Assembly (NCBI GenBank): GCA_036506275.1
Contig: DASXSB010000030.1
Location: 46,683 to 110,682, forward strand
Length of the DNA: 64,000 nt
Direction of reading: 5' to 3'
Origin: Candidatus Methylomirabilota bacterium
GTDB taxonomy: Bacteria; Methylomirabilota; Methylomirabilia; Rokubacteriales; CSP1-6
How positions within the stretch are numbered: the first letter of the stretch is position 1; each line of letters opens with the position of its first letter. A program made the translations under genes and the position numbers. Positions 13,371-44,445 of the stretch are shown piece by piece. Under the pieces are notes generated by a model. The model ran no database searches. It was not told where the DNA came from and worked only from the letters and a program-made list of their open reading frames with translations.

Positions 13371-14795
<1,425 letters not shown>

Positions 14796-16791: not shown

Positions 16792-17033
16792 CCCCTCCTC
16801 GCGTCGGACTCGAGAGACCGGCCGCGTAGGGAAATGTTTGCCGCAAGAGGAGCCAATTCCGCCCTCCGAGCGGGAAGAGATGTCCAGCGTGTGTGTCGAA
16901 GAAGACTACAGAGTCCGCAGCGAGCGCGGTGCTCGCGAACGTCATGAGCGCGAAAACCTGCGACGGTCGTGGTCGCTCGCGCGGTTTGGCACATGCATTC
17001 CTGGCACATGCGTTGCAAACCGATAGGTATCAC

Positions 17034-29168: not shown

Positions 29169-30908
29169 ATGCCTCCGCCTCAGCCCAAGCTCGGGCAGCC
29201 CGCGAACCGCCGCCTCGGTGACCTCCTCGTCGCCGACGGACTCATCACGGACGAACAGCTCAGAAAGGCTCTCGCCGAGCAGCGCGGGACGGGGGAAAAG
29301 CTCGGGAGCATCCTCGTTCGCCTCAATCTCGTGAACGAGGAGCAGTTGACGGGCTTCCTGTCCCGGCAGTACGGCATCCCGTCCATCACGCTCTCCCAGC
29401 TCGACGTCGATCCGGAATTGCTGCGCCTGGTGCCGTCTCAGATCGCGAAGAAGTACGAGGTCCTCCCCATCCGGCGCGTGGGCGACTCCCTGGCGCTCGC
29501 CATGGCCGACCCCACCAACGTCTTCGCCCTCGACGACGTCGCCTTCATGACCAATTTGAAGGTGCTGCCGCTAGTGGCGCCCCAGGCGGCGATCCGGAAG
29601 GCGATCGACCGCTTCTACGACAACCAGAGCGACGCCATCTCGGGCGTGCTCACCGCCCTCACCAGCGAGGCGCCCAACGTCGAAGTGGTCGACAGCGACG
29701 AGTCCGCCAACAAGGTCGACGTCTTCGAGCTCAAGGAATCGGCGGACGAGGCGCCCGTCGTCAAGCTCGTCAACATGGTGCTCGTCGACGCCATCCAGAA
29801 AGGGACGTCGGACATTCACTTCGAGCCGTACGAGAAAGTGTTCCGGATCCGGTTCCGCATCGACGGCGTGCTCCAGGAGGTGCTCGCTCCCCCCAAGAAG
29901 CTCGAGTCGGCGCTCATCTCCCGGCTCAAGATCATGTCGAACCTCGACATCGCGGAGCGTCGACTGCCCCAGGACGGCCGCATCAAGCTGCGCTACAACC
30001 AGCGCGAGATCGACTTCCGGGTGTCGATCCTGCCCACGATCTTCGGCGAGAAGGCCGTGCTCCGTATCCTCGACAAGGAAGCGCTGAAGCTCGACCTCAC
30101 CCAGCTCGGCTTCGATCCCTGGAGCCTCGAGAACTTCGATAAGGCGATCAACCAGCCGTACGGGATGGTCCTGATCACGGGCCCCACTGGCTCCGGCAAG
30201 ACGACCACGCTGTACTCCGCGATCCACACCATCAACTCTCCCGACGTCAACATCATGACGGCGGAGGATCCCGTCGAGTACAACCTCAAGGGCGTCAACC
30301 AGGTGCAGATCGACGAAGGCGTGGGTCGGACGTTCGCGGCCGCTCTCCGCTCGTTCCTGCGGCAGGACCCGGACGTCATCCTCGTCGGCGAGACCCGGGA
30401 CCTGGAAACCGCGCAAATCGCCATCCGGGCCGCGCTCACCGGCCATCTCGTCTTCACGACCCTCCACACCAACGACTGTCCTTCCACCATCGCCCGGCTC
30501 ATCGACATGGGCGTCCCCAACTTCCTGGTGGCGTCGTCGATGCAGCTCATCCTCGCCCAGCGTCTCGGGCGCAAGGTCTGCAAGCAGTGTCGCGAGCCCT
30601 ATGACACCGACGAGGAAACGCTGGTGCCGTACGGCCATGTGCTGAGCGGCGTGGGCAAGACGCAGTTCTACAAGGGCAAGGGGTGCCCCGCCTGCAACCA
30701 GACCGGGATGAAGGGCCGCGTCGCCATCTACGAGGTAATGCCGATCACCGAGGAACTACGCGACCTTATCCTCAAGAACGCGTCCACCGCCGAGCTCAGG
30801 TCCATGGCGCAAGCGCAGGGCATGAAGACCCTCCGCCAGGCAGGCCTTTTGAAGGTGCTCGACGGAACCACGACGCTGGACGAGGTCCTTCGCGTTACGA
30901 TCGCGTAG
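29169..30908 (+). CDS. pilB: Type IV pilus assembly ATPase PilB
   Basis: N-terminal GSPII_E N domain is present. Walker A GPTGSGKTTT, Asp box, Walker B and the tetracysteine motif CKQC...CPAC are present. Confidence 0.9.
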   Translation: MPPPQPKLGQPANRRLGDLLVADGLITDEQLRKALAEQRGTGEKLGSILVRLNLVNEEQLTGFLSRQYGIPSITLSQLDVDPELLRLVPSQIAKKYEVLPIRRVGDSLALAMADPTNVFALDDVAFMTNLKVLPLVAPQAAIRKAIDRFYDNQSDAISGVLTALTSEAPNVEVVDSDESANKVDVFELKESADEAPVVKLVNMVLVDAIQKGTSDIHFEPYEKVFRIRFRIDGVLQEVLAPPKKLESALISRLKIMSNLDIAERRLPQDGRIKLRYNQREIDFRVSILPTIFGEKAVLRILDKEALKLDLTQLGFDPWSLENFDKAINQPYGMVLITGPTGSGKTTTLYSAIHTINSPDVNIMTAEDPVEYNLKGVNQVQIDEGVGRTFAAALRSFLRQDPDVILVGETRDLETAQIAIRAALTGHLVFTTLHTNDCPSTIARLIDMGVPNFLVASSMQLILAQRLGRKVCKQCREPYDTDEETLVPYGHVLSGVGKTQFYKGKGCPACNQTGMKGRVAIYEVMPITEELRDLILKNASTAELRSMAQAQGMKTLRQAGLLKVLDGTTTLDEVLRVTIA

Positions 30909-30973: not shown

Positions 30974-32188
30974 ATGGCTGTGTTCGCGTACCGGGGCAGG
31001 TCCACGGCGGGAGCCGTGTCCGGTGAGGTGGAGGCCGACGACCGGCTGGCGGCGGTCACGCAGCTCCGAGCCAAGGGCGTCGTACCGACCGCGGTCGAGG
31101 AGCGCAAGGGGAAGACGGCGGCGGCCACCGCCGGCACCAAGAAGATCCGCGGCAAGGTCAAGGACAAGGACCTCGCCATCTACACCCGGCAGTTCTCCAC
31201 CATGGTCGACGCCGGACTCCCCATCGCGCAATGCCTCCAGATCCTGTCCGAGCAGAGCGACTCGAAGCCCTTGCGCGAGGTGACCGCGCTCATCGCCCGC
31301 GACGTCGAGGGAGGCTCCACGCTGGGCGACTCCTTCCGCAAGTATCCGCGGGTCTTCGATGACCTCTTCACGAACATGCTCCAGGTCGGGGAGTCGGGTG
31401 GCGTGCTCGACGTGGTCCTCCAGCGCCTCTCCGGCTACATCGAGAAGGCGGCCGCCCTCAAGCGGAAGGTCAAGGGCGCGATGGTGTATCCAATCACCAT
31501 CATCTCCGTCGCCTGTCTCATCATCATCTTCATGATGGTGTTCGTCATCCCGACGTTTGCCACCATGTTCAAGAACCTCGGCGCCGAGCTTCCCCTGCCC
31601 ACGAAGATCGTCATGTGGGCGTCGGACTTCACGCGGAAGTACATCATCTTCATGATCCTCGCCATCGCCGGCCTCATCTACGCCTTCAAGCGCTACTACC
31701 GGACGGAGAACGGCAGCACCGTCATCGACACCTTCATGCTGAAGGTGCCCGTCATCGGCATGCTGATCCGGAAGGTGGCGGTGGCGCGCTTCACGCGCAC
31801 GCTGGGGACGCTGATCTCGTCCGGCGTGCCGATTCTCGAAGGGCTCCGCATCACCGCGCGCTCCGCGCAGAACCGCGTGGTGGAGAAGGCCGTTATGCAG
31901 GCCCGCTCGGCGGTGACGTCGGGCCGCACGCTCGCGGAGCCCCTGAAGGGCACGCCGGTCTTCCCGCCCATGGTCGTCCACATGATCAACGTCGGTGAGA
32001 ACACGGGCGCTCTCGACGCCATGCTCTCCAAGATCGCCGACTTCTACGACGACGAGGTCGACACCGCCGTCAGCGCCCTCACGTCGTTGCTGGAACCGCT
32101 CATGATCGTGTTCCTGGGCGTGGTCGTGGGCGGACTCGTGGTCGCGATGTACATGCCGATCTTCAAGCTGGTGACGCTGGTCAAGTAG
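30974..32188 (+). CDS. pilC: Type IV pilus inner-membrane platform protein PilC
   Basis: Track ORF 30683..; real start at M98 (MAVFAYRGRS..., RBS TAGGAGA). It has two GspF-type repeats with three TM segments. Confidence 0.9.
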   Translation: MAVFAYRGRSTAGAVSGEVEADDRLAAVTQLRAKGVVPTAVEERKGKTAAATAGTKKIRGKVKDKDLAIYTRQFSTMVDAGLPIAQCLQILSEQSDSKPLREVTALIARDVEGGSTLGDSFRKYPRVFDDLFTNMLQVGESGGVLDVVLQRLSGYIEKAAALKRKVKGAMVYPITIISVACLIIIFMMVFVIPTFATMFKNLGAELPLPTKIVMWASDFTRKYIIFMILAIAGLIYAFKRYYRTENGSTVIDTFMLKVPVIGMLIRKVAVARFTRTLGTLISSGVPILEGLRITARSAQNRVVEKAVMQARSAVTSGRTLAEPLKGTPVFPPMVVHMINVGENTGALDAMLSKIADFYDDEVDTAVSALTSLLEPLMIVFLGVVVGGLVVAMYMPIFKLVTLVK

Positions 32189-33798
32189 TGAAGTCGCTCG
32201 ACGCCAACCGCCTCCTGCGCGGGTTCTCGTGGGTGCGGCTGGGGCTCGCCGAGCTCCTGCTCGTGGTGGGACCGCTCCTCCCTCCCGAGCTGATGCCGGG
32301 AACCAATGCCGGCATCCTCGCCCTCGCGTTGCCGGTGGCGGTGGTGTCCTCGGGGGCCATCTTGCTCTTCGGCCCCGTGGCGCAGCCCCGCCGCATCGCC
32401 TGGTTCCTGTGCTTGCTCGACGTCACGTTGATCACGGCGGTCGTGGCCGCCACCGGCGGCGCGCGCTCGATCTTCGCCTTCCTGTACGTGCTCTCCGTCA
32501 CCGGCGCCTGCGTGCTGCTGTCGCGGACGGGTGGCCTCGGCATCGCCGCCGTGTGCAGCGTCCTCTACACCGGCCTCGTGCTCGGACGGACCGTCTTTCC
32601 CATGAACGTCTTCTTCGAGGCACCGGGAGAGACGACCGCCCTCGAGGTCCTCACGATCTTCCTCAATTCCGGGACGTTCCTCATCGTGGCGATCGTGGCG
32701 GGCGGCGTTGCCGAGCAATTCCGGACCGTGCACGAGGAGCTGGAGACGGAGCGGAAGAACCTCAGCGACCTCCAGGCCTTCAAGGACCTCGTCTTCCAGT
32801 CGCTCGACACGGGCGTCATCGCCCTCGACCTCGAGGCGCGCGTGACCGCGTTCAACCGGGCCGCGGAGCGGATCACGGGGCTGTCGGCCCACGACGCCAT
32901 CGGGCGCCGGTGGACGGCGCTCTTCGGACCCGGCGTCGCCCTCGACGCCGTGGAGGCCGCCATCGATGCGGGAGCGCGGACGGGTCCGCGCCACGAGCTG
33001 ATGCTGCCGTATGCGCGGGGCGGCACCGTCCCCGTGCGCGTGGCCTTCTCCGCCGTCCGTTCCGCCGACGGCACGCGCGTGGGCATCATCGCGCTCTGCG
33101 AGGACCTCTCCACGCTGCGCGAGATGGAGGAGCGCGTTCGCCAGGCCGATCGTCTCGCCACCCTCGGTCGCATGGCCGCCAACATCGCGCACGAGATCCG
33201 CAATCCATTGGCGTCGATGACGGGCGCCCTCGAGGCCCTCACGAGCGGCCTCCCCACCGAGGAGCGTGACCGCCTCGCCCAGATCGTGCTGCGCGAGTCT
33301 GACCGGCTGAACGAGATCATCAAGAACTTCCTGGAGTACGCGCGTCCGGCTCCCATTGTCTTAGAATCGGTCGATGTGGCGCACGCGCTCGACGAGGTTC
33401 TGGTCCTCCTCGAGCACCGGGGCAAGTCGCTCAAGATCGTACGCGAATTCACGGGACCGATCCCCTGGCGCGTCGATCCCCAGCAATTCCGCCAGGCCAT
33501 CTGGAACCTCTGCTTGAATGCGGTGGAAGCGATGACGGACGGCGGAGAGCTGCGCGTGGGAGCCGAGATCCGGCGCCGGCGGCTCGAAGTGTGGGTGGCC
33601 GACACCGGGGAAGGCATCGGGGCCGGCGATCTTTCGCACATCTTCGAGCCGTTCTTCTCCACCAAGCCGAACGGCAGCGGTCTCGGCCTCGCTCTCGTCC
33701 ACCGCATCGCGCAGGATCACGGCGGCGACGTCGACGTCCGTAGCGCGCCCGGCTTCGGCAGCCACTTCACCCTTACCCTTCCCGCCCACGATGGCTGA
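32188..33798 (+). CDS. pilS: PilS-like sensor histidine kinase (multi-TM sensor, PAS, HisKA, HATPase)
   Basis: About 6 N-terminal TM helices are present. H-box reads IAHEIRNPLASM. G-boxes DTGEGIG and GSGLGLALV are present. GTG start overlaps the pilC stop by 1 nt. Confidence 0.8.
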   Translation: MKSLDANRLLRGFSWVRLGLAELLLVVGPLLPPELMPGTNAGILALALPVAVVSSGAILLFGPVAQPRRIAWFLCLLDVTLITAVVAATGGARSIFAFLYVLSVTGACVLLSRTGGLGIAAVCSVLYTGLVLGRTVFPMNVFFEAPGETTALEVLTIFLNSGTFLIVAIVAGGVAEQFRTVHEELETERKNLSDLQAFKDLVFQSLDTGVIALDLEARVTAFNRAAERITGLSAHDAIGRRWTALFGPGVALDAVEAAIDAGARTGPRHELMLPYARGGTVPVRVAFSAVRSADGTRVGIIALCEDLSTLREMEERVRQADRLATLGRMAANIAHEIRNPLASMTGALEALTSGLPTEERDRLAQIVLRESDRLNEIIKNFLEYARPAPIVLESVDVAHALDEVLVLLEHRGKSLKIVREFTGPIPWRVDPQQFRQAIWNLCLNAVEAMTDGGELRVGAEIRRRRLEVWVADTGEGIGAGDLSHIFEPFFSTKPNGSGLGLALVHRIAQDHGGDVDVRSAPGFGSHFTLTLPAHDG

Positions 33799-35191
33799 CG
33801 CGCGCGTCCTCGTCGTCGACGACGAGCGGAGCATGCGTGATCTGCTCTCGATCATGCTGAAGCAGAGCGGATATCACGTGGTGGCCGCCGACGGCGGCGA
33901 AGAGGCGCTGGCCGCCATCGCCCAGGAGCCCTTCGACCTCGTCATCACCGACCTCCGGATGCGGAAGGTCGACGGCATCGCCGTCCTCCGCGCGGCCAAG
34001 GAGCATTCGCCGCACACGGTCGTCCTCGTGGTGACCGCCTTCGCGTCCACGGAGACGGCGGTGGAGGCCATGAAGCTCGGCGCCTACGACTACATCACCA
34101 AACCGTTCAAGCTCGACGAGATCAAGCTGATCATCGCCAACGCCATCGAGCGCAAGCGTTTGCAGGACGAGAACGTCGCCCTCAAGCGCCAGCTCCGCAA
34201 GGAACGCGGGTTCGAGCACTTCATCGGCAAGAGCCGGAGCATGCTCGAGGTCTTCGAGACCATTCGCAAGACGGCCGACAGCGGCTCCACGGTGGTGGTC
34301 ACGGGCGAGAGCGGTACCGGGAAGGAGCTGGTGGCGCAGGCCATCCACGGCGAGAGCGCGCGGCGACAGGGGCCGTTCGTCTCCGTGAACTGCGGCGCCG
34401 TGCCCGAGAACCTGATGGAATCGGAGCTGTTCGGGCACATGAAAGGCGCGTTCACGGGTGCCATCGCCACCACGGAGGGACTGTTCGCGGCCGCCCACGG
34501 AGGGACACTGTTTCTCGACGAAATCACCGAAATACCGCAGTCGGTGCAGGTGAAGCTCCTGCGCGCCATCCAGGAGCGGGAGATCAGGCGGGTGGGCGAC
34601 GTGAAAGACGTGAAGGTCGACGTTCGTCTCATCGCCGCCTCCAACCGCGACCTCGCGAAGGCCATGGCGCAAGGGACGCTCCGGGAGGACCTCTTCTATC
34701 GGCTCAACGTCATCCCCATCCAGCTTCCGCCGCTGCGGGACCGCCGCGAGGACATCCCGCTCCTCGTCGCGCACTTCATCCAGAAGATCTGCCGGGAGAC
34801 CGGCAAGGACGTCCGCGGCGTCACCCCGGAAGCCCTCGCGATCCTCGAGTCGTATGCGTGGCCGGGCAACATCCGCGAACTGGAGAACGTGATCGAGCGC
34901 GCGATCGTGCTCGGAGGCGGGCCCATGGTGCGGCCGGAGGCGCTGCCGCCCACGCTGCGGTCGCCGTCGAGCGTCCACGACGTAGCGGTGGAGATTCCCG
35001 AAGGTGGTCTCGACCTCGAAGCCACCATCGACCGCGTCGAGCAGCGCTACATCGAGCTCGCGCTTGCGCGTGCGGGCGGCGTGCAGACACGCGCCGCCGA
35101 GCTCCTCGGGGTGAGCTTCCGGCAGTTCCGCTACAAGCTCCACAAGCACACGGCGAAGACACCCCGGGCCACCTCACCGGATCACCGGTGA
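33791..35191 (+). CDS. pilR: Sigma-54-dependent response regulator PilR
   Basis: Receiver VLVVDDERSMRDLL...DLVITDLRMRKVDG. AAA+ GESGTGKELVAQAIH / GAFTGA. C-terminal HTH. The start overlaps the pilS stop. Confidence 0.9.
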   Translation: MADARVLVVDDERSMRDLLSIMLKQSGYHVVAADGGEEALAAIAQEPFDLVITDLRMRKVDGIAVLRAAKEHSPHTVVLVVTAFASTETAVEAMKLGAYDYITKPFKLDEIKLIIANAIERKRLQDENVALKRQLRKERGFEHFIGKSRSMLEVFETIRKTADSGSTVVVTGESGTGKELVAQAIHGESARRQGPFVSVNCGAVPENLMESELFGHMKGAFTGAIATTEGLFAAAHGGTLFLDEITEIPQSVQVKLLRAIQEREIRRVGDVKDVKVDVRLIAASNRDLAKAMAQGTLREDLFYRLNVIPIQLPPLRDRREDIPLLVAHFIQKICRETGKDVRGVTPEALAILESYAWPGNIRELENVIERAIVLGGGPMVRPEALPPTLRSPSSVHDVAVEIPEGGLDLEATIDRVEQRYIELALARAGGVQTRAAELLGVSFRQFRYKLHKHTAKTPRATSPDHR

Positions 35192-35297
35192 CGGATTTCG
35201 TCACGGCGCTTGTCAACGCCGGTCAAAGCGGCGCCCGCGCCGTCGATCGCCCGCACGCTAGTCGCCGATTCTAAAGACCCCGGCGCGAACCCGCGTT

Positions 35298-35313
35298 TGG
35301 CACCCCCCGTGCA
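35298..35313 (+). promoter_or_regulatory. Sigma-54 promoter (TGGCAC-N5-GTGCA) for pilA1
   Basis: TTTGGCACCCCCCGTGCACACC; GG at 35299-300 and GC at 35311-312 (canonical spacing). About 75 nt upstream of the pilA1 ATG. Confidence 0.6.
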
Positions 35314-35386
35314 CACCCTTTGGGTCACGACGCCGACGGCGTGGGCCGCCCGGCGCGCAAACAATCTTGACACCAGGGGGGCTTCA

Positions 35387-35806
35387 ATGATCGCGTTCTG
35401 GAATAAGAAACGTCTCACGCTCGGCAGCGAGCGTGGCTTCACGCTCATCGAGCTGATGATCGTGGTCGCGATCATCGGCATCCTGGCTGCCATCGCCATC
35501 CCGCTCTATGCGAACGTTCAGCAGCGCGCCCGTATCGCCAAGGTTCAGGCGGACCAGCGTGCGCTCGCGTCGGCTATCTCGATCTTTCAGGCGCACACGG
35601 GCGGGCTCCCGGCTGCGCTCGCGAACCTGACGGCCACCGTGTCGAACGGGCAGGGCCAGACGGCGGGCCCGTTCATTGCGCGCGAACCGTCGCCTCCCGG
35701 TGGCGGCACCCCGGCGTGGGGCGCGACCTACACGTACACGGATAACGGTAACGGCACGTTCACGCTCACGGCGACGGGTGACGGCACCACGATCACCACT
35801 CCGTAG
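35387..35806 (+). CDS. pilA: Type IVa major pilin PilA, copy 1 (139 aa precursor)
   Basis: Track ORF 35210..; start at M60. Class III leader MIAFWNKKRLTLGSERG|FTLIELMIVVAIIGILAAIAIP has Gly-1/Phe+1/Glu+5. No cysteines. The C-terminus is Thr/Gly-rich. Confidence 0.9.
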   Translation: MIAFWNKKRLTLGSERGFTLIELMIVVAIIGILAAIAIPLYANVQQRARIAKVQADQRALASAISIFQAHTGGLPAALANLTATVSNGQGQTAGPFIAREPSPPGGGTPAWGATYTYTDNGNGTFTLTATGDGTTITTP

Positions 35807-35838
35807 CGACAGCACGCTTCGCGCTCGGATGTATCGAC

Positions 35839-35870
35839 GGGGAGGCACCTGCCTCCCCGTTTTGTTTTGT
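35839..35870 (+). terminator. Rho-independent terminator after pilA1
   Basis: GGGGAGGC-acct-GCCTCCCC hairpin followed by GTTTTGTTTTGT. Confidence 0.6.
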
Positions 35871-36052
35871 GTGCCCTCGAGGGCACACGCCCGTCCGCTG
35901 GTGCGGTGGCGAGCGGCGTCAGTTTCTGAAGGCAACCCAGGTGACCGATTTTGTCAGCGCACGTGCCCAAAACCATCAGAAGCGGCATCGCGCGTGGCCG
36001 GCGGGTGTTCGTCAAACCAATGAATTCATTTCGGTCCCACCTGAAGGACCTT

Positions 36053-36068
36053 TGGCACTGGGCGTGCA
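36053..36068 (+). promoter_or_regulatory. Sigma-54 promoter (TGGCAC-N5-GTGCA) for pilA2
   Basis: TTTGGCACTGGGCGTGCACT with the same -24/-12 geometry as the pilA1 promoter. About 64 nt upstream of the pilA2 ATG. Confidence 0.6.
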
Positions 36069-36130
36069 CTACTCCGGCGGCAACGCGCCCGTGGGGGCGG
36101 ACAGGTAGAAGTCCAAAGGGGGAATTCGTC

Positions 36131-36550
36131 ATGATTCGTTTCTGGAACACGAAGCGCCTCACGCTCGGGAGTCAGCGTGGTTTCACGCTGATCGAGCTGA
36201 TGATCGTGGTCGCGATCATCGGTATCCTGGCGGCGATCGCCATCCCGCTCTATGCAAACGTTCAGCAGCGCGCCCGTATTGCGAAGGTGCAGGCCGACCA
36301 GCGCGCTCTCGCGTCGGCGATCTCGATCTACCAGGCTCACACGGGTGGGCTCCCGGCTGCGCTCGCGAACCTGACGGCTACCGTGTCCAACGGACAGGGT
36401 CAGACGGCGGGTCCCTTCGTGGCGCGTGTCCCTTCGCCTCCCGGTGGCGGCACCCCGGCGTGGGGCGCGACCTACACGTACACGGATAACGGTAACGGTA
36501 CGTTCACGCTCACGGCGACGGGTGACGGCACCACCATCACCACTCCGTAA
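36131..36550 (+). CDS. pilA: Type IVa major pilin PilA, copy 2 (139 aa; 6 substitutions vs copy 1)
   Basis: Track ORF 35951..; start at M61 (MIRFWNTKRLTLGSQRG|FTLIELMIVV...). The rest is near-identical to pilA1. Confidence 0.9.
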   Translation: MIRFWNTKRLTLGSQRGFTLIELMIVVAIIGILAAIAIPLYANVQQRARIAKVQADQRALASAISIYQAHTGGLPAALANLTATVSNGQGQTAGPFVARVPSPPGGGTPAWGATYTYTDNGNGTFTLTATGDGTTITTP

Positions 36551-36564
36551 CGCCGCTCTGGAAC

Positions 36565-36605
36565 ACGAGGCGGGGAGGGAGCATCCTCCCCGCCTCGTAT
36601 TTTCG
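36565..36605 (+). terminator. Rho-independent terminator after pilA2
   Basis: A 13-bp stem CGAGGCGGGGAGG / CCTCCCCGCCTCG with loop GAGCAT, followed by TATTTTCGG. Confidence 0.6.
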
Positions 36606-36619
36606 GCGGCCGGGGCCCT

Positions 36620-38542
36620 ATGCTCGACCGAACCATCAGCATCCTGACCGCCGCTGTCGCCGTCGACACCGAGTCCGCACCGTCCGATCGCGTCCGCGTT
36701 TCCCCGCTGACGCAGTACCTGCTGCCCGCTGCCCTCGCCGTGCTCGCGTTCCTGGTCTTCGCGCCCGCACTCTGGAACGGTTTCGTGGAATGGGACGACG
36801 ACGTCAATCTCCTCCGTAACACGCAATACCGTGGTCTCGGCTGGGCTCAGCTCCGCTGGATGCTCACGACGATCCTGATGGGCCACTACATTCCCCTCAC
36901 CTGGTTCACGTTCGGCCTCGACTTCACGATGTGGGGCATGGACCCCTTCGGGTATCACCTCACCAACCTGATCCTGCACGCGGCGAACACGGCCCTCGTC
37001 TACCTGGTCGCGCGGCGGCTGCTCTCGCGCGCGACGTCGCTGCGCGAGCCGCGTCTCGGTATTGCCGCCGCCACCGCCAGCGTGTTCTTCGCGGTTCATC
37101 CGCTGCGCGTGGAATCCGTGGTGTGGGTGACGGAGCGCCGCGACGTCCTCTCCGGCTTCTTCTTCCTCCTCGCCGTGCTGACGTACCTCGTCTCCACGGA
37201 CCACACCGGAGGTCGGAAGCGGTGGTTCCTGGCGGCGGGGGCCGCGTCGTTCGCGCTCGCGCTCGTCTCGAAATCGATCACCATGACGCTGCCGCTCGTC
37301 CTCGTGCTCCTCGACGTGTATCCGCTGCGACGGCTCGGTGGGGATCAGGGCTGGACGGGGCCCCGCGCGCGACTGGTGTGGATCGAGAAGCTTCCGTTCT
37401 TCGTGCTGGGAGCGGCCGGCGCCGCCGTCTCCTACTACGCCGTGTACGCGAACGCATTCTTGACGCCGCTCACCCGGTATCCGCTGCCGGCGCGCATTGC
37501 GATGACGCTCTACAGCGTCGCGTTCTATGTCGCGAAGACGGCGCTCCCCCTCGGGCTCTCCCCGATGTACGAGCTGCCCGCGCATCTCGACCCCTGGGAA
37601 CTGCGTTTCGTCGCGAGCGCGCTCTTCGTCATGCTCGTAAGCACGGTCACGCTCGTATTGTGGAAGCGGTCGCCGGCAGGGCTCGCCGTCTGGCTCTACT
37701 ACGGCATCGTGCTCGGCCCCGTCACCGGATTCATCCATTCCGGCCACCAGCTCGCCCACGATCGTTACAGCTATCTGTCCTGCCTCGGATGGGCGCTGCT
37801 GGTGGGGGGCACCGTGGGTGTCGTCCTTCGCGCGACGGCGCGCCGTCGTGTGCGTCCGTTCTTCGCGGTCCTGGCGGGCGTGGCCGGGATCGTCTGGCTC
37901 GTCGGCCTCGCCTTCCTCACCGTGCGCCAGAACGAGGCGTGGCGCGACACCGAGCGCCTGTGGTTGTACGCGCTGCAGGCCGATCCCACCTGCGCGGTGT
38001 GCCACAGCAACCTCGGCGCCTACCTCGTGAACCAGAACATGGTGGAGCCCGCGCTCCAGCATCTCCACCGCACGATCGAGCTCCGCCCGGAGCGCCTGAA
38101 GACCCACGGCAACATCGGCCTCGCGCTGCTCAAGCTCGGGCGCGTGGAGGAGGCGATTCCCCGCTTCCGTCTCGCCCTCGAGGAGGATCCTTACGACGTC
38201 GGCTTCCTCACGAACTTGAGCGTGGCCCTAATGCGGCAGGGCCGGACGGCGGAAGCGCTTCCCTATCTGGGCCGTGCCCTCGAACGCGACCCGGGCCACA
38301 TCCTCGCCCGCACGAATCTCGGCACTGCGCTCGCGAAGCTCGGGCAGCGCTCGGAAGCGCTCAAGCAGTACCGCCTGGCCCTCGCCATCGATGCCGACGC
38401 GCCCCCGCCCCATCTCGGTCTCGCCACGCTGTATCGTGAGAGCGGCGACATGGCGTCCGCGAGGCGGGAGTACGAGACGCTGCGTGCGCTCAAGTCTCCA
38501 CTCGCCGAGCAGATCAGTCCCGCCTTCATCGAGGAGTGGTGA
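36620..38542 (+). CDS. GT-C fold membrane glycosyltransferase-like protein (TMTC / PMT_2 / DUF1736-like) with C-terminal TPR repeats
   Basis: About 11 TM helices are present. A conserved loop motif reads FAVHPLRVESVVWVTERRDVLSGFFFLLA (HPxxxExVxWxxxRxDxL). The C-terminal ~200 aa are TPR repeats. Confidence 0.75.
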   Translation: MLDRTISILTAAVAVDTESAPSDRVRVSPLTQYLLPAALAVLAFLVFAPALWNGFVEWDDDVNLLRNTQYRGLGWAQLRWMLTTILMGHYIPLTWFTFGLDFTMWGMDPFGYHLTNLILHAANTALVYLVARRLLSRATSLREPRLGIAAATASVFFAVHPLRVESVVWVTERRDVLSGFFFLLAVLTYLVSTDHTGGRKRWFLAAGAASFALALVSKSITMTLPLVLVLLDVYPLRRLGGDQGWTGPRARLVWIEKLPFFVLGAAGAAVSYYAVYANAFLTPLTRYPLPARIAMTLYSVAFYVAKTALPLGLSPMYELPAHLDPWELRFVASALFVMLVSTVTLVLWKRSPAGLAVWLYYGIVLGPVTGFIHSGHQLAHDRYSYLSCLGWALLVGGTVGVVLRATARRRVRPFFAVLAGVAGIVWLVGLAFLTVRQNEAWRDTERLWLYALQADPTCAVCHSNLGAYLVNQNMVEPALQHLHRTIELRPERLKTHGNIGLALLKLGRVEEAIPRFRLALEEDPYDVGFLTNLSVALMRQGRTAEALPYLGRALERDPGHILARTNLGTALAKLGQRSEALKQYRLALAIDADAPPPHLGLATLYRESGDMASARREYETLRALKSPLAEQISPAFIEEW

Positions 38543-39288
38543 TGGTCGGCGTCGTTTTCGCGTTCGGCCTCGTCATCGGCAGCTTCTTGAACGTCGTCAT
38601 CGCGCGCTTGCCCGCGCGCCGGAGCCTGTGGGCGCCGCGGTCGGCGTGTCTCGGGTGTGGAACTCCCATCGCGTGGCACGACAACATTCCGGTCCTGTCC
38701 TTCGTCGCTCTCCGCGGTCGCTGTCGCGCGTGCGGGGTCGCGATCTCCGCGCGCTATCCGATCGTGGAGCTGGGCACGGCGATCCTCTGGAGTCTCGCGT
38801 ATCGCGAATTCGGCCTCACCCCCGAGCTGGCGGTGGCGCTCCTCCTGCTGTCCGCACTCATCGTCATCACCGCCATCGATCTCGATCACCAGATCATTCC
38901 GGACGCGATCACGCTCCCCGGCATCGTGACAGGATTCGTTGCCAATCTGGCGACCGGACGCGTGCCATGGCTGGATTCGCTCCTCGGCATCCTCGTCGGT
39001 GGCGGCATCTTTTTGATCATCATCATTGCCAGCGGCGGCGGGATGGGCGGCGGAGACATGAAGCTCGGCGCGATGCTGGGCGGTTTTTTGGGCTGGAAAG
39101 TCCTGCTCTTGTCGGTGTTCGCGTCGGTGCTGCTCGGAGGCGCGCTCGCCATCGGCCTCCTCGCGGCCGGGCGCCGGGGTCGTAAAGACCCCATCCCGTT
39201 TGGTCCCTTCCTTGCACTTGGCGGCGCCGTCGGCCTCTTCTGGGGCGACCGCCTGCTGCATTGGTACCTGGCGTCATTTCAACCATGA
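38536..39288 (+). CDS. pilD: Prepilin peptidase / N-methyltransferase PilD (A24 family)
   Basis: The N-terminal tetracysteine CLGCGTPIAW...CRACG is present. The catalytic Asp region IDLDHQIIPD is present. The protein is polytopic. Confidence 0.9.
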   Translation: MVMVGVVFAFGLVIGSFLNVVIARLPARRSLWAPRSACLGCGTPIAWHDNIPVLSFVALRGRCRACGVAISARYPIVELGTAILWSLAYREFGLTPELAVALLLLSALIVITAIDLDHQIIPDAITLPGIVTGFVANLATGRVPWLDSLLGILVGGGIFLIIIIASGGGMGGGDMKLGAMLGGFLGWKVLLLSVFASVLLGGALAIGLLAAGRRGRKDPIPFGPFLALGGAVGLFWGDRLLHWYLASFQP

Positions 39289-39289
39289 G

Positions 39290-39781
39290 ATGGACATGCC
39301 AATGAACGACGTGACGAGGCGACCCAATCGCGGCCAGCGAGGATTCTCGCTGACCGAGCTCGTTGTCGTGGTGGCCATCATCGGAGTTCTCGCCGTTCTC
39401 GCGACCCCGTTCTTCATCACATACCTCCGCAACGCGGCGGTCCAGGGCGCCGCGGGCGAGGTGGCGACGATCCTGAACCAGGCTCGGCAGCTCGCGATCG
39501 CTCGGAACGGAAGCGTGTGCGTCCGGATCAACGGCGCCACCATGCGCTACGAGCTGAACGCCTGCGGAAGCGCCGTTTACTACCGTGGCCCGGGAACGGA
39601 CAGCAATGGCTACATGCGTCTCACGGACAACGTCAATCTGGCGACGACTGCGGACCCGGTCTTCACGAGTCTCGGCGCAGCGGCGCCGGCGGCAACCTAC
39701 ACCGTGACGCACTCCCAATATCCCACCATCACGACGACCGTCACGGTCTCGGGCTCGGGCCGTGTACGGGTCGGACCGTAG
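39290..39781 (+). CDS. Type IV minor pilin (FimT/GspH-like pseudopilin)
   Basis: Start at M31 of track ORF 39200.., 1 nt after the pilD stop. Prepilin leader ...RGQRG|FSLTELVVVVAIIGVLAVLA. Confidence 0.7.
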   Translation: MDMPMNDVTRRPNRGQRGFSLTELVVVVAIIGVLAVLATPFFITYLRNAAVQGAAGEVATILNQARQLAIARNGSVCVRINGATMRYELNACGSAVYYRGPGTDSNGYMRLTDNVNLATTADPVFTSLGAAAPAATYTVTHSQYPTITTTVTVSGSGRVRVGP

Positions 39782-39794
39782 ACGGCGGTGCTGC

Positions 39795-40223
39795 ATGCGG
39801 GTCGCGGTGAACGAGCGCGGGCTGACGCTCGCGGAGGTGTTGGTGGCGACCGTCATCATCGCGGCGGGCTTTCTCGCCGTCCTCACCGCCTTTCCGCAGG
39901 CGATGACCGGTGTGCAGACGGGCAACGAGGAATCGACGGCGACGTTCCTCGCTCAGCAGAAGCTCGAGTCCTTGCGGGCGGCCGCCGTGAACGATCCCAT
40001 GCTCACGGCGGCGACCTTCAGCAACGGCGTCACCACGGAAGCGTACGGCACCATTCCGAACGCGCAGAAGTACCAGCGCGTCACCGCCATCACGGCCGGC
40101 CCCACCACGACCACCAAGCGCGTTACGGTGACCGTGACGTACCGGCCCTCCGTCGCGACGTCCACGGGCGGGAGCGCCGCCCGCACGGTGACCGTCGCCA
40201 CCGTCCTCTCCACGAGGCGGTGA
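39795..40223 (+). CDS. Type IV minor pilin (PilV/GspI-like)
   Basis: Start at M12 of track ORF 39762... Leader MRVAVNERG|LTLAEVLVATVIIAAGFLAV is followed by a Thr-rich C-terminal part. Confidence 0.65.
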   Translation: MRVAVNERGLTLAEVLVATVIIAAGFLAVLTAFPQAMTGVQTGNEESTATFLAQQKLESLRAAAVNDPMLTAATFSNGVTTEAYGTIPNAQKYQRVTAITAGPTTTTKRVTVTVTYRPSVATSTGGSAARTVTVATVLSTRR

Positions 40224-40307
40224 CGATGGCGCGAATGACGGGAGACGACCGCTCGGCATGCGCGGGGTGGATGGAGCGCGCCGTCGATCTCCCTCTCCCC
40301 GCCCGGG

Positions 40308-41633
40308 GTGCCTGACCGGCCGCGCGTGCGACACATCGAAAACGCGAAACGCGCCTGGAACGAGCGCGGGCTGGCACTGCCGCTGGCGGTGATCTGTCTG
40401 CTCACCGTCACGGGGCTCGTGCTCACGTTTCTCACCGTGAGCGCCATCGAGCCGCAGATCTCGGCGAACCACGCGCGGGGAACCCAGGCGCGCTACGCCG
40501 CCGAGGCCGGCATCGAATGGGGCTTCGACTATCTCGTCCGCACTCCCGACTGGAATGCCGTCCTCGCGGGAGCGACGGGCACCGGCCGGGACATCACGCC
40601 GGGCGCGCCCTGGGCGGGCGCCACCCCGGTGCTCGGGACCTTCACGCTGATCGTCCGCAACGACTGGCGCGCCGCGGATAGCGCCATCACCGGTGTCCCG
40701 CGCGATTCGTCCGGCGCGCCGACGACGGATACGAACAACGTCCTCCTCGTCACCGCCACCGGCAGCTTCCGCGGCGCCATGCAGACGATCACGGCGGCGG
40801 TGAGGAAAGGAGTGCTCCCCACGACCAACGCCGCCCTCGCCTTCCCGGGGTTGGGGGCGGGCGTCGACTTCGCCCACTCCGCCTTCACCATCGACGGGAC
40901 CGACTCCAATCTGGATGCGTCCGCGGGCGCCGCGCGGCCGGTCTACGGGATCTCGGTCGCCGGCGGCGCCACCGGTAATCAGACGCTCGTGCGGGACGCC
41001 GTCGCCGCCAACACGCAGAATCAGGTGCGGGGCCTGAGCGCGACGAGTGCGACGGCGCCGGCGGCCGCGACGGTGGCGAGCGGCGAGAGCGCCATCGCCA
41101 GCGACGGCGCTCTCACGTCATCGCAGATTCTCGAGTTCGTGGACGCCGTCAAGGCTCAGGCCGATGTCACGATCGACGTCAGCAACGGGACGCGCGCCAC
41201 CGTGGCGGGAGCGGGAGGGAGTTGCGCGGACGTCGGTTCCCGCACCTGCTGGGGAACGCTCGACTACCCGAAGATCGTCTACGTGAAGGGCGGCCTGACC
41301 GGCAGCCCGGGCATCGCCATCACCGGCAACAGCGAGGGCACCGGTGTCCTCATCGTGGACAGCGCGGAGGCGTCGATCGAAGGGCCGTTCCGCTGGAACG
41401 GGCCCATCATTCTCACCGGCCACAACGTGTCGCTTCGGTATGGCGGCTCCGGCAGCGGCGACATCTTCGGCGCCGTCATCATCAACGAACTGGCGACGAC
41501 CACGACGTCGGTGCAGCTCGGGAGCGACGCCGCCCGTCCCGCCGCCATTCGGTACAGTCGGCAGGCCCTCGACCTCGTCGACCGTGGCCTCAGCCGTCGT
41601 TTCGTTCACCTCTATAGCTGGCGGGAGCACTAG
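40308..41633 (+). CDS. PilX-like type IV pilus minor pilin / tip-associated protein (long form, ~440 aa)
   Basis: PilX_N-like N-terminus ERGLALPLAVICLLTVTGLVLTFLTVSAIEPQIS. The remainder is a Gly/Thr/Ala-rich beta-rich domain. The start is uncertain; a GTG (VRHIENAK) is possible. Confidence 0.6.
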   Translation: MPDRPRVRHIENAKRAWNERGLALPLAVICLLTVTGLVLTFLTVSAIEPQISANHARGTQARYAAEAGIEWGFDYLVRTPDWNAVLAGATGTGRDITPGAPWAGATPVLGTFTLIVRNDWRAADSAITGVPRDSSGAPTTDTNNVLLVTATGSFRGAMQTITAAVRKGVLPTTNAALAFPGLGAGVDFAHSAFTIDGTDSNLDASAGAARPVYGISVAGGATGNQTLVRDAVAANTQNQVRGLSATSATAPAAATVASGESAIASDGALTSSQILEFVDAVKAQADVTIDVSNGTRATVAGAGGSCADVGSRTCWGTLDYPKIVYVKGGLTGSPGIAITGNSEGTGVLIVDSAEASIEGPFRWNGPIILTGHNVSLRYGGSGSGDIFGAVIINELATTTTSVQLGSDAARPAAIRYSRQALDLVDRGLSRRFVHLYSWREH

Positions 41634-41750: not shown

Positions 41751-42809
41751 ATGTTTAAGTTGCCCTTCTTGCGTAAAGCGGCGGATGTCTTCGGCCTCGA
41801 TATCGGCTCCAGCGCCATCAAGGTCGTGCAGCTCGACGGGTCGGGCAAGTCCTACCGCCTCTCCGCGCTCGGCATCACCTCGCTCGGCCCCGACGTCATC
41901 ACCGAGGGCGCCATCAAGGATCCGGGCGCGGTCGTGGACGCGATCAAGGACGCGGTGGCCAAGGCCGGCATCAAGACGACCGACGCCGCCATCGCAATCG
42001 CCGGACGCGAGCTGATCATCAAGAAGGTTCAGATCCCGGAGGTCCCGGAAAAGGAGCTGCGGGGCGCCATCCAGCTGGAGGCGGAGCACCACATCCCGTT
42101 CTCGATCGACGAGGTCTTCCTCGACTACCAGGTCGTCGGGCACCACGATCGCGTCCTCGATCTGATCCTGGTCGCGGTGAAGAAGTCGAAGGTCATCGAG
42201 TACGTGGGAGTGGTGGAAGAGGCGGGCCTCAATCCGGTCATCGTCGACGTCGACGGCTTCGCCCTCGGCAACCAGTTCGAGCTCAACCATCCCGGCGAGG
42301 ACGGAGAGGCGGTCGCCCTCATCGATATCGGCGCCTCCATCATGAAGACCAACGTGGTGCGGGGAGCGGCGACCATCTTTGCGCGCGACATCCCGTTCGG
42401 TGGTCATCGCTACACGGAGGCGATCGCCGAGCACCTCCGGATTTCCCGCGACCGCGCGGAGGAAGCCAAGCTCGGCCGCGCTCCCGACATCGCCTGGGAC
42501 ACGCTCGCGCCCGCCCTGGAAGCGGTATCGCGAGAGCTCTCGCTCGAGGTGCAGCGGACGTTCGACTACTTCGCGTCCACCGCCGAGTCGGAGCGCATCG
42601 CCAAGATCGTCCTCGCCGGCGGCTGCGCGCAGCTTCCCGGTCTCGACGACTACCTCTCCTCGAGTTGGGGAATCCCCGTCGAGCTCGCTCGGCCCTTCGA
42701 GCGCGTCGACGTCTCGCGCGAGTACGCGGATGCCGTGGCGGCGGCCGGCCCCGCCCTCGCGGTGGCGGCAGGTCTCGGACTCCGCCGGCCAGGAGACAAG
42801 GACGCATGA
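41751..42809 (+). CDS. pilM: Type IV pilus assembly protein PilM (actin-like ATPase fold)
   Basis: FGLDIGSSAIKVVQL ... the typical PilM/FtsA-like fold markers. Confidence 0.9.
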   Translation: MFKLPFLRKAADVFGLDIGSSAIKVVQLDGSGKSYRLSALGITSLGPDVITEGAIKDPGAVVDAIKDAVAKAGIKTTDAAIAIAGRELIIKKVQIPEVPEKELRGAIQLEAEHHIPFSIDEVFLDYQVVGHHDRVLDLILVAVKKSKVIEYVGVVEEAGLNPVIVDVDGFALGNQFELNHPGEDGEAVALIDIGASIMKTNVVRGAATIFARDIPFGGHRYTEAIAEHLRISRDRAEEAKLGRAPDIAWDTLAPALEAVSRELSLEVQRTFDYFASTAESERIAKIVLAGGCAQLPGLDDYLSSSWGIPVELARPFERVDVSREYADAVAAAGPALAVAAGLGLRRPGDKDA

Positions 42810-43363
42810 TCAGGATCAACCTCGCGCCCGCACCCGAACGCCGACGGGGGGCCGGGTTCCGGATCTCGGTACCGAGCTTCAACCTCGGCATGCTGTTCTT
42901 GGTCGTGTACGCGGTGGCCTTCCTCGGCATCGGCGCCTACTGGAAGATCCTCTCCAGCGCCGAGAGCCGCTTGACCGCCAGCATCCACGACGGCCAGCGC
43001 GAGCTCGACACCCTCAAGCTCAAGATCGGCAAGCTCGGGAAGGTGAAGGAGCTGCACGCCGAGCTCCAGAAGCGGGTCGCGGCCATCGAGACGCTCACGA
43101 AGGATCAGACGCGGCCCATCCTCCTCGTGGACGCATTCGCCGACATGATCCCCCGCGATCTGTGGATCACCGGTATCGAGGAGCGCTCCTCGTCCCTCAA
43201 GGTCACGGGCACCGCCTTCTCCACGACGGCCGTGGCCGACCTCATGTCGAACCTCCGCGCCTCGGGGAGGTTCAAGGAGGTCGATATCGTGGTCTCGCGC
43301 CAGGACCTCACCAAGACCCCGCGCCTGGTGACCTTCGAGGTCACCTGCCGGTTCGAGATCTGA
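42806..43363 (+). CDS. pilN: Type IV pilus assembly protein PilN
   Basis: Start at M48 of track ORF 42665.. (MIRINLAP...), overlapping the pilM stop (ATGA). It has one TM and a coiled coil. Confidence 0.85.
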   Translation: MIRINLAPAPERRRGAGFRISVPSFNLGMLFLVVYAVAFLGIGAYWKILSSAESRLTASIHDGQRELDTLKLKIGKLGKVKELHAELQKRVAAIETLTKDQTRPILLVDAFADMIPRDLWITGIEERSSSLKVTGTAFSTTAVADLMSNLRASGRFKEVDIVVSRQDLTKTPRLVTFEVTCRFEI

Positions 43364-43364
43364 G

Positions 43365-43982
43365 ATGGAATCGCTGAAGACGGCGTTCGCTCCGATTCTG
43401 AACGCGCCGAAGCCGCACAAGATCGCGATCGGCGTGATGGTGCTCGTGCTCGTGGGCGGCCTCACGTACTACTTCCTCCTGTCCCCGCTCCAGCAGCGAG
43501 TGGCCGAGCTGGAGACGCAGAACGAGCAGGTGCAACGCGAGGTGGCCCAGCATCGGGCGATGGTGGCCGACCTCGAGCGTTATCGCCGCGAGGCCGCCGA
43601 GCTCGAGAAGCGTCTGGCCATCCTCCAGGAGAAGCTGCCCACCGAAAAGGAGATGCCGCCGCTCTACCGCACCATGTCGGACGCGGCGTTCGAGTCGGGC
43701 CTGGCGGTGTCGCTCTTCCAGCCGCGTGAGGCCAAGGTCCGCGACTACTACAACGAGATCCCGATCAGCATCGTCGCCGAGGGCGGCTATCACGAGCTCG
43801 GTGAGTTCCTCGAGAAGGTGGGCAGGCTGCCGCGGGTGGTGACGGTGGGCGACATGAAGCTCAGCGGCCTCACGAGGCAGAAGAATCCGATGAAGGCCGA
43901 GGTGACGTTCGCTACCTACACCTACCGCCCGGTTGGTTCGCCGCCGGCGCCGAAGCCCGGCGCCGCGCCAGGAGCCAAGTGA
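43365..43982 (+). CDS. pilO: Type IV pilus assembly protein PilO
   Basis: One TM (IAIGVMVLVLVGGL) is present. A coiled coil follows. The position after pilN supports the call. Confidence 0.85.
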   Translation: MESLKTAFAPILNAPKPHKIAIGVMVLVLVGGLTYYFLLSPLQQRVAELETQNEQVQREVAQHRAMVADLERYRREAAELEKRLAILQEKLPTEKEMPPLYRTMSDAAFESGLAVSLFQPREAKVRDYYNEIPISIVAEGGYHELGEFLEKVGRLPRVVTVGDMKLSGLTRQKNPMKAEVTFATYTYRPVGSPPAPKPGAAPGAK

Positions 43983-44443
43983 TGACGGTCTCGCGCTCTC
44001 TGTTTTGGTCGCTCGGGCTGGTGACTACGCTGACCGCCTGCAGCGGCGGCCCTTCGGGGCCGGAGCTGACAGTGGCCCCCAAGCCGGCCGCACCCGGTCA
44101 ACCGGTGGCGGCCGTCGTCACGCCGCCGCCGGCGATGCCCGAAGGCTCCCGCGTCGGCTACGACCGTAAAGGCCGGCGAGACCCATTCGAGGTGCTGGAG
44201 GTCCGGCAAGGCGCCAAGGGAGTGACGGTGTCTTCCGCCAAGCTCACCGGCATCGTGCGCGGCGATGGTTCGCCGCTGGCACTCGTGGAGACGCCGGAGG
44301 GACTCGGCTACATCCTCAAAACGGGCGACACCCTGGGCGACGGACGACTTCTCGAGATCGGGCAGGACACCGTGGTGTTCGGCGTTGTGCCGACGCCAGG
44401 TGAAGCCGCTAACCGCGTGATCTTAAAACTGGCGACCAACTAA
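43979..44443 (+). CDS. pilP: Type IV pilus assembly lipoprotein PilP
   Basis: Lipobox LTAC. The C-terminal pilot-like beta domain is present. The start overlaps the pilO stop. Confidence 0.8.
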   Translation: MMTVSRSLFWSLGLVTTLTACSGGPSGPELTVAPKPAAPGQPVAAVVTPPPAMPEGSRVGYDRKGRRDPFEVLEVRQGAKGVTVSSAKLTGIVRGDGSPLALVETPEGLGYILKTGDTLGDGRLLEIGQDTVVFGVVPTPGEAANRVILKLATN

Positions 44444-44445
44444 TC

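Follow-up and report, generated by a model that had tools for sequence, protein, structure and literature searches.

In Myxococcus xanthus and Geobacter, the major pilin gene pilA of the type IVa pilus (T4aP) is controlled by PilS, PilR, and sigma-54, and the gene order pilB-(pilT)-pilC-pilS-pilR-pilA of these bacteria is well known. TfpO is a pilin accessory glycosyltransferase encoded downstream of pilA. Comparisons of type IV pilus (T4P) clusters have also described two tandem pilA genes in Stigmatella aurantiaca and the pilAI/pilAII genes of P. stutzeri (PMC6060248). In the monoderm S. sanguinis, two tandem major pilins, PilE1 and PilE2, form heteropolymeric T4P (PMC6497953, PMC10628169). 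TfpW, a pilin glycosyltransferase, is encoded directly downstream of pilA in group IV strains of P. aeruginosa (bioRxiv 10.1101/2020.04.19.049825). Here, we describe a tandem pair of pilin genes, pilA1 and pilA2, within the complete T4aP cluster of a diderm, which is located in a 64,000-nt stretch of contig DASXSB010000030.1 from a Candidatus Methylomirabilota bacterium of the Rokubacteriales (the window; GC content, 68%). The surface structures of Rokubacteria/Methylomirabilota, which are abundant in soil and uncultured, are unstudied, and a literature search found no papers on Rokubacterial pilins.

The two genes are probably both functional major-subunit genes of one type IVa pilus, with a benefit in dosage or regulatory flexibility and with a product that is possibly glycosylated. 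The elements of the two units are listed below in window coordinates.

35188-35203, + strand: upstream inverted repeat 1, GTGACGGATTTCGTCA, a candidate PilR site about 110 nt upstream of the -24 element of pilA1
35298-35313, + strand: sigma-54-type promoter of pilA1, TGGCACCCCCCGTGCA, 89 nt upstream of the ATG (the ortholog L082_1 has TGGCACCCTCCGTGCA)
35387-35806, + strand: pilA1, a prepilin of 139 aa (leader, 17 aa; mature part, 122 aa), with Pfam N_methyl and T2SSG above the cut-off
35836-35871, + strand: intrinsic terminator of pilA1, an 11-bp GC stem followed by UUUUGUUUUG (-30.6 kcal/mol, z -3.5)
35941-35956, + strand: upstream inverted repeat 2, GTGACCGATTTTGTCA, a candidate PilR site about 110 nt upstream of the -24 element of pilA2; identical in L082_2 and L096
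36053-36068, + strand: sigma-54-type promoter of pilA2, TGGCACTGGGCGTGCA, 78 nt upstream of the ATG
36131-36550, + strand: pilA2, a prepilin of 139 aa that differs from pilA1 in three leader and three mature residues
36565-36605, + strand: terminator hairpin of pilA2, a 14-bp stem with the weak U-tract UAUUUUC (-44.8 kcal/mol, z -5.1)

Both open reading frames (ORFs; 420 nt each) are intact. Their starts are offset by 744 nt, and the repeat finder reported a single direct repeat with this spacing in the region. The N-termini share the class III (prepilin) signal M-I-x-F-W-N-x-K-R-L-T-L-G-S-x-R-G, followed after the cleavage site by F-T-L-I-E-L-M. The prepilin motif itself reads RG and then FTLIELMIVVAIIGILAAIAIP, with Gly at -1, Phe at +1, and Glu at +5 before the hydrophobic start of alpha-1. 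Pfam N_methyl (36-38 bits; cut-off, 21.2) and TIGR02532 both matched. The pilA1 protein is an exact match to the database protein P0001 from a Methylomirabilota metagenome-assembled genome (MAG).

An earlier note, made from the sequence of this DNA, was partly confirmed and largely right in its observations, and its interpretation is partly supported. It recognized the tandem major-pilin paralogs, each with its own TGGCAC-N5-GTGCA promoter and hairpin terminator, and both are present next to genes for PilS and a PilR with the GAFTGA motif. Likewise, both ORFs have the 17-aa leader, no cysteine, and no C-terminal disulfide loop, as had been stated. The mature protein (122 aa) contains 17 Thr, 14 Gly, and 21 Ala, and 12 Thr and 8 Gly fall within the last 45 residues, in agreement with the reported Thr/Gly-rich C-terminus. 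The figure of about 95% identity for the two units holds for the proteins (96%; mature parts, 98%, 3/122 residues differing) but not for the coding sequences (CDSs), which are 89.8% identical (43/420 nt differ, with synonymous-only changes in 31 codons), nor for the promoter regions, 5' UTRs, and 3' flanks, which cannot be aligned apart from short motifs. There are exactly six protein changes from pilA1 to pilA2, three in the leader (A3R, K7T, and E15Q) and three in the mature part (F67Y, I97V, and E100V). The note had placed them in the leader and the C-terminal half, but none lies in the Thr/Gly-rich C-terminal third (codons 101-139), where the two proteins are the same. Only 3 of the 43 nucleotide differences are found in the last 120 nt of the CDS.

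Relatives of the locus were gathered by exact-protein look-ups. Most matches listed by a contig scan with the family alignment, which relied on generic N-terminal pilin peptides, were unrelated pilins; also listed were L002 and L003, two distant Rokubacteria loci. The separately assembled JGI metagenome contig L001 has the same arrangement as the window, with 1 mismatch in 12,420 nt. Two copies are present in the window and L001, in L082/83/84 (pilin 89% identical), and in L086, L088/89, L092/93, and L094 (about 70% identical), and L087 has three copies in tandem. The orthologous two-copy arrangement was found in at least six other samples or assemblies, and every examined relative with a pilin between pilR and pilD has tandem copies. 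The partial contig L096 of a third close species contains copy 1 and the start of copy 2. Single orphan copies occur elsewhere in such genomes (L085 and L090). The pilin of L085 (positions 2166-3013; JGI 3300036862, which is also the source metagenome of L001) is an orphan third paralog of 73% identity with its own TGGCAC-N5-CTGCA promoter and TGAC-N7-GTCA repeats. It is preceded by an HNH gene and directly followed by a ComEA-like HHH_3 gene, and it may be a DNA-uptake-associated pilin. In L087 (3995-5414), a contig with many apparent frameshifts, the first of the three pilin genes is frameshifted and truncated after about residue 80. A sigma-54 motif is found only at this first gene, and copies 2 and 3 are set apart by hairpins, with no promoters.

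The nucleotide alignment that the note had called for, to date the duplication and detect gene conversion, points to an old duplication with a mature part homogenized by conversion. Between the window and L082, collinearity extends through both intergenic regions, at a nucleotide identity of 81-87%; each copy therefore has flanks that are orthologous to those of the copy in the same position. In the leader-coding part, orthologs are 86% and 92% identical and within-genome paralogs 75-76%. In the C-terminal-coding part, the identities are 86-87% for orthologs, and 97% (window) and 95% (L082) for paralogs. A site-pattern test was applied to the quartet of the two window genes and L082_1/2. All eight sites that group the sequences by position are at nt 7-60, all 22 that group them by genome are at nt 67-385, and one site has the third pattern (Mann-Whitney p = 3e-7). 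The breakpoint at the leader/mature boundary, near nt 60-67, is sharp. The same conversion pattern was seen in L096. In the more distant quartet L086/L088, grouping is mainly by position (18 sites), and a by-genome cluster at nt 361-371 corresponds to the variable C-terminal loop. The grouping of the leaders by position and of the mature parts by genome indicates that the duplication is ancestral and that gene conversion followed later. The simplest account indicated by these alignments is a single old duplication, predating the split of several lineages, with repeated conversion of the mature-coding part. Between pilA1 and pilA2, dS drops from a saturated 2.6 in the leader to 0.46 across codons 18-100 and 0.10 across codons 101-139, which indicates that the latest conversion probably involved the 3' third of the mature-coding part. 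With a dN/dS of 0.07 overall and 0.05 for the mature part, purifying selection on both copies is strong. Within a genome, the mature proteins are 84-98% identical in all six pairs and the leaders are widely different. P0002, from a 1,585-nt JGI contig, is a close variant with a pilA2-type leader and V97/V100, yet it has the pilA1 state F67 and an additional S14N change. It could have arisen in a related strain by exchange between the two copies, or it could be a plain point variant.

Both pilin genes are preceded by TGGCAC-N5-GTGCA with GG-N10-GC elements at a fitting distance. In the 64-kb window, TGGCAC-N5-KTGCW has three matches against 0.05 expected, two of which are the pilA promoters, and no sigma-70-like promoter was found in the pilA1-pilA2 region. 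The motif TGGCA-N7-TGC[AT] is located 76-99 nt 5' of the ATG of each copy in 12/12 pilins of six two-copy loci. TGAC-N7-GTCA is found at the same distance as in the window in L082_1, L082_2, L085, L087_1, L002, and L003, and also 5' of pilA2 in L096. This repeat is the obvious candidate binding site for the adjacent PilR activator. The 5' UTRs (35325-35386 for copy 1 and 36080-36130 for copy 2) are mutually unrelated and near-identical to their L082 orthologs (copy 1, about one mismatch in the last 59 nt; copy 2, a 30-nt identical core), a conservation far above that of synonymous sites (dS ~0.4). Each 5' UTR contains a small 5-bp GC hairpin and folds no better than shuffled sequence (z -0.7 and -0.8). 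Both terminator hairpins fold significantly better than shuffled sequence. The hairpin of pilA2 was not called by the consensus scan, and its weak U-tract makes some read-through into the next gene possible. Rfam gave only sub-threshold chance matches for the terminator hairpin. Phase variation at promoter 1 was considered, as the spacer contains a C6 tract, and was rejected because L082_1 breaks the tract.

The reading that survives best beside two equivalent genes for one filament is that the copies are specialized, as a pilin with a modulator (P. stutzeri PilAII), as subunits of distinct filaments (Thermus PilA4/PilA5), or for use under different conditions; specialized second pilins have precedents (PMC6060248). 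The leader differences A3/R3 and E15/Q15 are kept by position across species, and the precursors could be handled differently and not be merely redundant. The unrelated but conserved 5' UTRs point in the same direction. In the clade of L086, L088, L092, and L094, copy 1 has TGGCAC...GTGC[TA], and about 16 nt separate its -24 element from an upstream TGAC-N4-5-GTCA repeat. The promoter of copy 2 reads TGGCA[TC]...[AT]TGCT, including TGGCAT...ATGCT, with a different -12 element, and lacks the repeat of copy 1. These motifs suggest that in this clade the two copies are under different regulation rather than serving plain dosage. Nevertheless, the mature parts in the window differ at only 3/122 residues, the within-genome mature identity is high in all pairs, and the assembled part is held alike by conversion, a pattern not easily squared with distinct filaments or an antagonist. 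In the window itself, the two promoters share the upstream repeat and the promoter type. We regard specialization as unlikely.

The earlier note had left the choice between dosage amplification and antigenic diversification; dosage is favored. Pili are common phage receptors, and two slightly different subunits could serve antigenic, phage-receptor, or surface diversification, given the three mature substitutions and a C-terminal loop that varies between species (DNGNG, TNANG, SSSAG, and ANTNG). However, this variable loop is identical between the copies of one genome, the dN/dS values are low, and conversion homogenizes the copies instead of diversifying them. No inverted segments, silent cassettes, invertible elements, or further repeats were found around the pilin genes. 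Such diversification is improbable.

The pilin pair is embedded in a cluster with the plus-strand order pilB-C-S-R, pilA1, pilA2, a glycosyltransferase/tetratricopeptide repeat gene (GT-C/TPR gene), pilD, minor pilins, and pilMNOPQ. The genes other than the GT-C/TPR gene are as follows.

29169-30908, + strand: pilB-type assembly ATPase (Pfam T2SSE, 1e-145, and MshEN)
30974-32188, + strand: pilC-type platform protein (Pfam T2SSF in two stretches; start taken from the gene call in L001)
32188-33798, + strand: pilS-type sensor kinase (Pfam 6TM_PilS, PAS, HisKA, and HATPase_c)
33791-35191, + strand: pilR-type sigma-54 enhancer-binding response regulator (Response_reg, Sigma54_activat 3e-70, and HTH_8; GAFTGA in the translation)
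38536-39288, + strand: pilD prepilin peptidase (Pfam A24_N_bact and Peptidase_A24)
39290-41633, + strand: three minor-pilin-like genes (GspH/FimT-like of 163 aa, then 142 aa and 435 aa; NCBIfam/Pfam N_methyl/GspH)
41751-46860, + strand: pilM, pilN, pilO, pilP, and pilQ (Pfam PilM_2, PilN, PilO, PilP, Secretin, and AMIN; PilQ is the secretin with the AMIN domain)

The locus resembles the T4aP clusters of Myxococcus xanthus and Geobacter in the order pilB-pilC-pilS-pilR-pilA, the GAFTGA-containing PilR-type activator, the GG-N10-GC promoter upstream of pilA, and the proximity of pilD and pilMNOPQ. It differs in having two separately promoted and terminated pilA units instead of one, in the lack of pilT between pilB and pilC, and in a far smaller, Cys-less pilin (122 aa mature). 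The duplication within or beside the pilus cluster is shared with Stigmatella and P. stutzeri. The pairs of these two bacteria are 55-70% similar, with divergent or unknown roles, whereas the mature parts of pilA1 and pilA2 are 98% identical and show concerted evolution throughout the clade, with the breakpoint at the leader/mature boundary. S. sanguinis PilE1 and PilE2 are likewise adjacent, highly similar, small major pilins without a disulfide, and PilE1 (8pfb) is the Protein Data Bank (PDB) entry whose sequence match covers most of pilA (residues 18-133). The PilE proteins have a flexible C-terminal tail that is stabilized on polymerization, whereas pilA has no tail after its last strand. 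Co-assembly was shown for PilE1 and PilE2; for pilA1 and pilA2, it is predicted.

The pilin had 7,668 hits in a word-indexed search; identity is 68% or higher and length about 139 aa throughout the best 120. When representatives clustered at 50% identity were searched exhaustively, 33 clusters matched at E ≤ 1e-30 and 977 at E ≤ 1e-10. None of about 45 inspected intact family members contains Cys. An alignment of 28 members shows a conserved leader length, no Cys, and the C-terminal pattern G-T-F-x-[ILV]-[TS]-[AG]-x-G-D-x-T-T-[IV]-x-x-P. The leader of 17 aa with its FW-KKR--LG-QRG pattern is kept in the family and is longer than canonical type IVa leaders (~5-10 aa). The Cys-less and Thr-rich architecture that the note had called unusual stands out only beside model T4a pilins; throughout this very large GspG-like family it is uniform, and it is better described as the standard of a group that is itself uncharacterized. 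The pilin of L003 (6001-6444; Rokuibacteriota MAG AR5), which is about 55% identical, has four Cys, two of them as a C-terminal pair, so the lack of Cys characterizes the family but not the whole phylum.

Sequence and fold both relate the pilin to GspG. Pfam T2SSG scored 24-26 bits against a cut-off of 21, and the best NCBIfam model was TIGR01710 (the GspG equivalog; cut-off, 88.85 bits), with scores of 60.9 and 63.9 bits in an alignment that spans positions 1-117 of 134. The AlphaFold (AF2) model has the lollipop shape of pilins, with a helix at residues 20-71 and strands at 111-119, 125-131, and 134-138, and its best PDB fold neighbor is the V. vulnificus major pseudopilin (3gn9; probability 0.98, TM 0.49/0.60). 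The chain stops straight after the last predicted strand and lacks the D-region disulfide of canonical type IVa pilins. In GspG/PulG, calcium bound by D117 and D125 stands in for the T4a disulfide (PMC13081927; PMC5131608). In our own motif alignment, the invariant G-D-G aspartate corresponds to D117 of the PulG loop (LGPDG), and the chain ends seven residues on, before D124/D125. Since the globular-domain profile gave only a weak GspG match among PDB sequences (E = 0.24), the calcium-site comparison rests on the motif alignment and the fold match. By this comparison, the complete GspG-type calcium site appears to be absent from pilA. A DxDxDG-type calcium loop in TDNGNGT was also considered and rejected, as its spacing is unfit and the loop is variable in the family. 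On current views, diderm pilins need a disulfide bond or a metal to staple their C-terminus (PMC10628169). No C-terminal region remains in pilA for such a staple, and its family looks like an exception to this view. The subunit would be a minimal GspG-like pilin with a long alpha-1, a short alpha-beta loop, a three-stranded sheet, and an end directly after the last strand. Threonines alternate in the predicted strands (T-Y-T-Y-T, T-F-T-L-T-A-T, and T-T-I-T-T). This T-x-T pattern should place hydrophobic side chains against the helix and a Thr ladder on the exposed face.

The resemblance to GspG (Cys-less, an alpha-1 helix with a small sheet, and the collinear motifs W-G-x-x-Y-x-Y ... G-x-F ... 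G-x-D-G) raises another alternative, namely that the two proteins are GspG-type pseudopilins of a type II secretion system and form no surface pilus. T2SSG, TIGR01710, and the EpsG fold match all lean toward it, many homologs are labeled "type II secretion system protein G" at JGI, and no pilT retraction ATPase was found between pilB and pilC or elsewhere in the 64-kb window. In contrast, the TIGR01710 scores (61-64 bits) remain below the equivalog cut-off, the leader has 17 aa, and the calcium loop is cut off, the D117 equivalent being kept and the chain stopping short of the other calcium ligand in the loop of GspG (D124/D125, PulG numbering; PMC13081927). The neighbors are PilS/PilR, PilM/N/O/P, the AMIN secretin, and minor pilins, not GspC/L/M/K. 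A pseudopilin identity is thus very improbable. The weakest alternative, an expanded or chimeric repeat arising from the error-prone assembly of repeats in a MAG, which the note had named as what would undo its observation, is already refuted by the comparative data and is next to impossible given the 43/420 (10%) coding differences, the non-homologous flanks, the identical arrangement in the JGI contig L001, and the orthologous two-copy loci.

Between pilA2 and pilD lies a gene with a possible role in pilin modification.

36620-38542, + strand: a membrane glycosyltransferase of 640 aa with a GT-C fold, a DD motif, and C-terminal tetratricopeptide repeats (TPRs); a candidate pilin O-glycosyltransferase whose stop codon overlaps the pilD start

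This gene starts 70 nt past the pilA2 stop. Sequence matches of the protein are to TPR families only (Pfam TPRs at residues 440-625), and its N-terminal 467 aa gave nothing in Pfam or PDB sequence searches; Pfam lacks a model of this family's membrane domain. The AlphaFold model is confident (pLDDT 87), with ArnT as the structural neighbor of the membrane part and OGT as that of the TPR part. The membrane domain has the GT-C fold and a DD motif in the first periplasmic loop. In homologs, W-D-D is invariant after the first transmembrane (TM) helix, and the motifs AVHPLRxES(V/A) and SKS(I)xMT are present. The motifs of the TMTC O-mannosyltransferases are DD, FAVHPIHTEAV, and KE(T/Q)xxT (PMC7801869), which the homolog motifs resemble, and many homologs bear the JGI label "protein O-mannosyl-transferase." TfpW (646 aa) crosses the membrane with 11 TM helices, carries a DDX motif and a TPR domain on the periplasmic side, and was modeled on ArnT and OGT (bioRxiv 10.1101/2020.04.19.049825). 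By its published architecture, it is similar to the protein encoded here in length (640 versus 646 aa), in the multi-TM GT-C domain with DD, in the C-terminal TPR, in the gene position immediately 3' of the pilin gene, and in the structural neighbors of both domains. The differences are that no genes for D-arabinofuranose or another sugar donor were seen in the window, that the nearest sequence motifs are those of the eukaryotic TMTC enzymes (PMC7801869), and that the gene is missing from several related pilin loci. The gene occupies the same site in L082, with 78% aa identity, and in L087 (40-55%), a distant locus with many frameshifts. By analogy with TfpW, O-glycosylation of the pilin by this enzyme is a reasonable inference and may occur.

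Here, we propose how the locus could work as the source of one pilus with two subunit genes. Each pilA would be a monocistronic unit composed of the inverted repeat, sigma-54 promoter, prepilin ORF, and intrinsic terminator, and the adjacent PilR is predicted to bind the upstream inverted repeat and drive expression of both copies. PilD would cut off the 17-aa leaders. As the resulting mature subunits differ at only 3/122 residues, both products should enter the same filament, which would be built by the flanking PilB/C/M/N/O/P/Q machinery. Recurrent conversion probably homogenizes the mature-coding part, and the leaders, 5' UTRs, promoters, and terminators diverge independently. The likely gain would be a higher or more flexibly regulated pilin supply, not two pili or antigenic variation. 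In the subclade with the GT-C/TPR gene, the pilin could also be O-glycosylated by its product.

Several points weigh against this proposal, in addition to the position-specific leader residues, the divergent regulation in the L086/L088/L092/L094 clade, and the lack of pilT in the window. Either copy could be silent under most conditions. GTGAC-N3-TTT-N-GTCA has only two matches in the window against 0 expected, a post hoc statistic because the pattern was taken from these very sequences. No rpoN was found among the scanned ORFs of the window, and sigma-54 dependence rests on the motifs and the adjacent activator. The confidence of the pilin model is moderate (pLDDT 75). As to glycosylation, the GT-C/TPR gene is linked to the pilin by position only and is absent from four of seven distinct T4P-cluster loci (L086, L088, L092, and L094). 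Its family is massively expanded in Rokubacteria/Methylomirabilota (6,985 matches at E ≤ 1e-10, many of them about 50% identical), with two paralogs on one 173-kb contig.

The pair is real, old, and conserved in the lineage, and the locus is a fairly ordinary variant of the type IV pilus locus. PilS/PilR/sigma-54 control, tandem major pilins, and glycosyltransferases downstream of pilA were known before. Known pilus biology is extended to a new phylum with some unusual details, and nothing is overturned. What is particular here is the clade-wide, independently promoted twin pair with its sharp leader/mature boundary of concerted evolution, the minimal GspG-like pilin without either known C-terminal staple, and the TMTC/TfpW-like GT-C gene in the cluster, a candidate for TMTC/TfpW-like O-glycosylation of a defined protein substrate in bacteria. 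Tentatively, and with considerable doubt, this Rokubacterial pilin family might represent a third solution for diderm T4a major pilins. The major pilin would be a minimal GspG-like subunit without disulfide, complete calcium loop, or tail; its Thr ladder (TYTYT / TFTLTAT / TTITT) would be glycosylated by a TfpW/TMTC-like GT-C enzyme, and it would be made from twin, leader-distinct precursors of one filament with conversion-matched mature parts.

Downstream of pilQ, the window continues with aroC, aroB, a gene for a small TPR protein, efp, and accC. The third match to the sigma-54-type motif, TGGCACATGCGTTGCA at 17002-17017, follows a partial duplicate, TGGCACATGCATTCC (window 16987-17040), and adjoins on the 5' side the probable GTG start, near 17035, of an unrelated diacylglycerol-kinase/YegS-like gene. 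Within a few kilobases of this motif, the minus strand encodes a second sigma-54 activator (13374-14795) and a Cache/HAMP/PAS histidine kinase (9363-11294).

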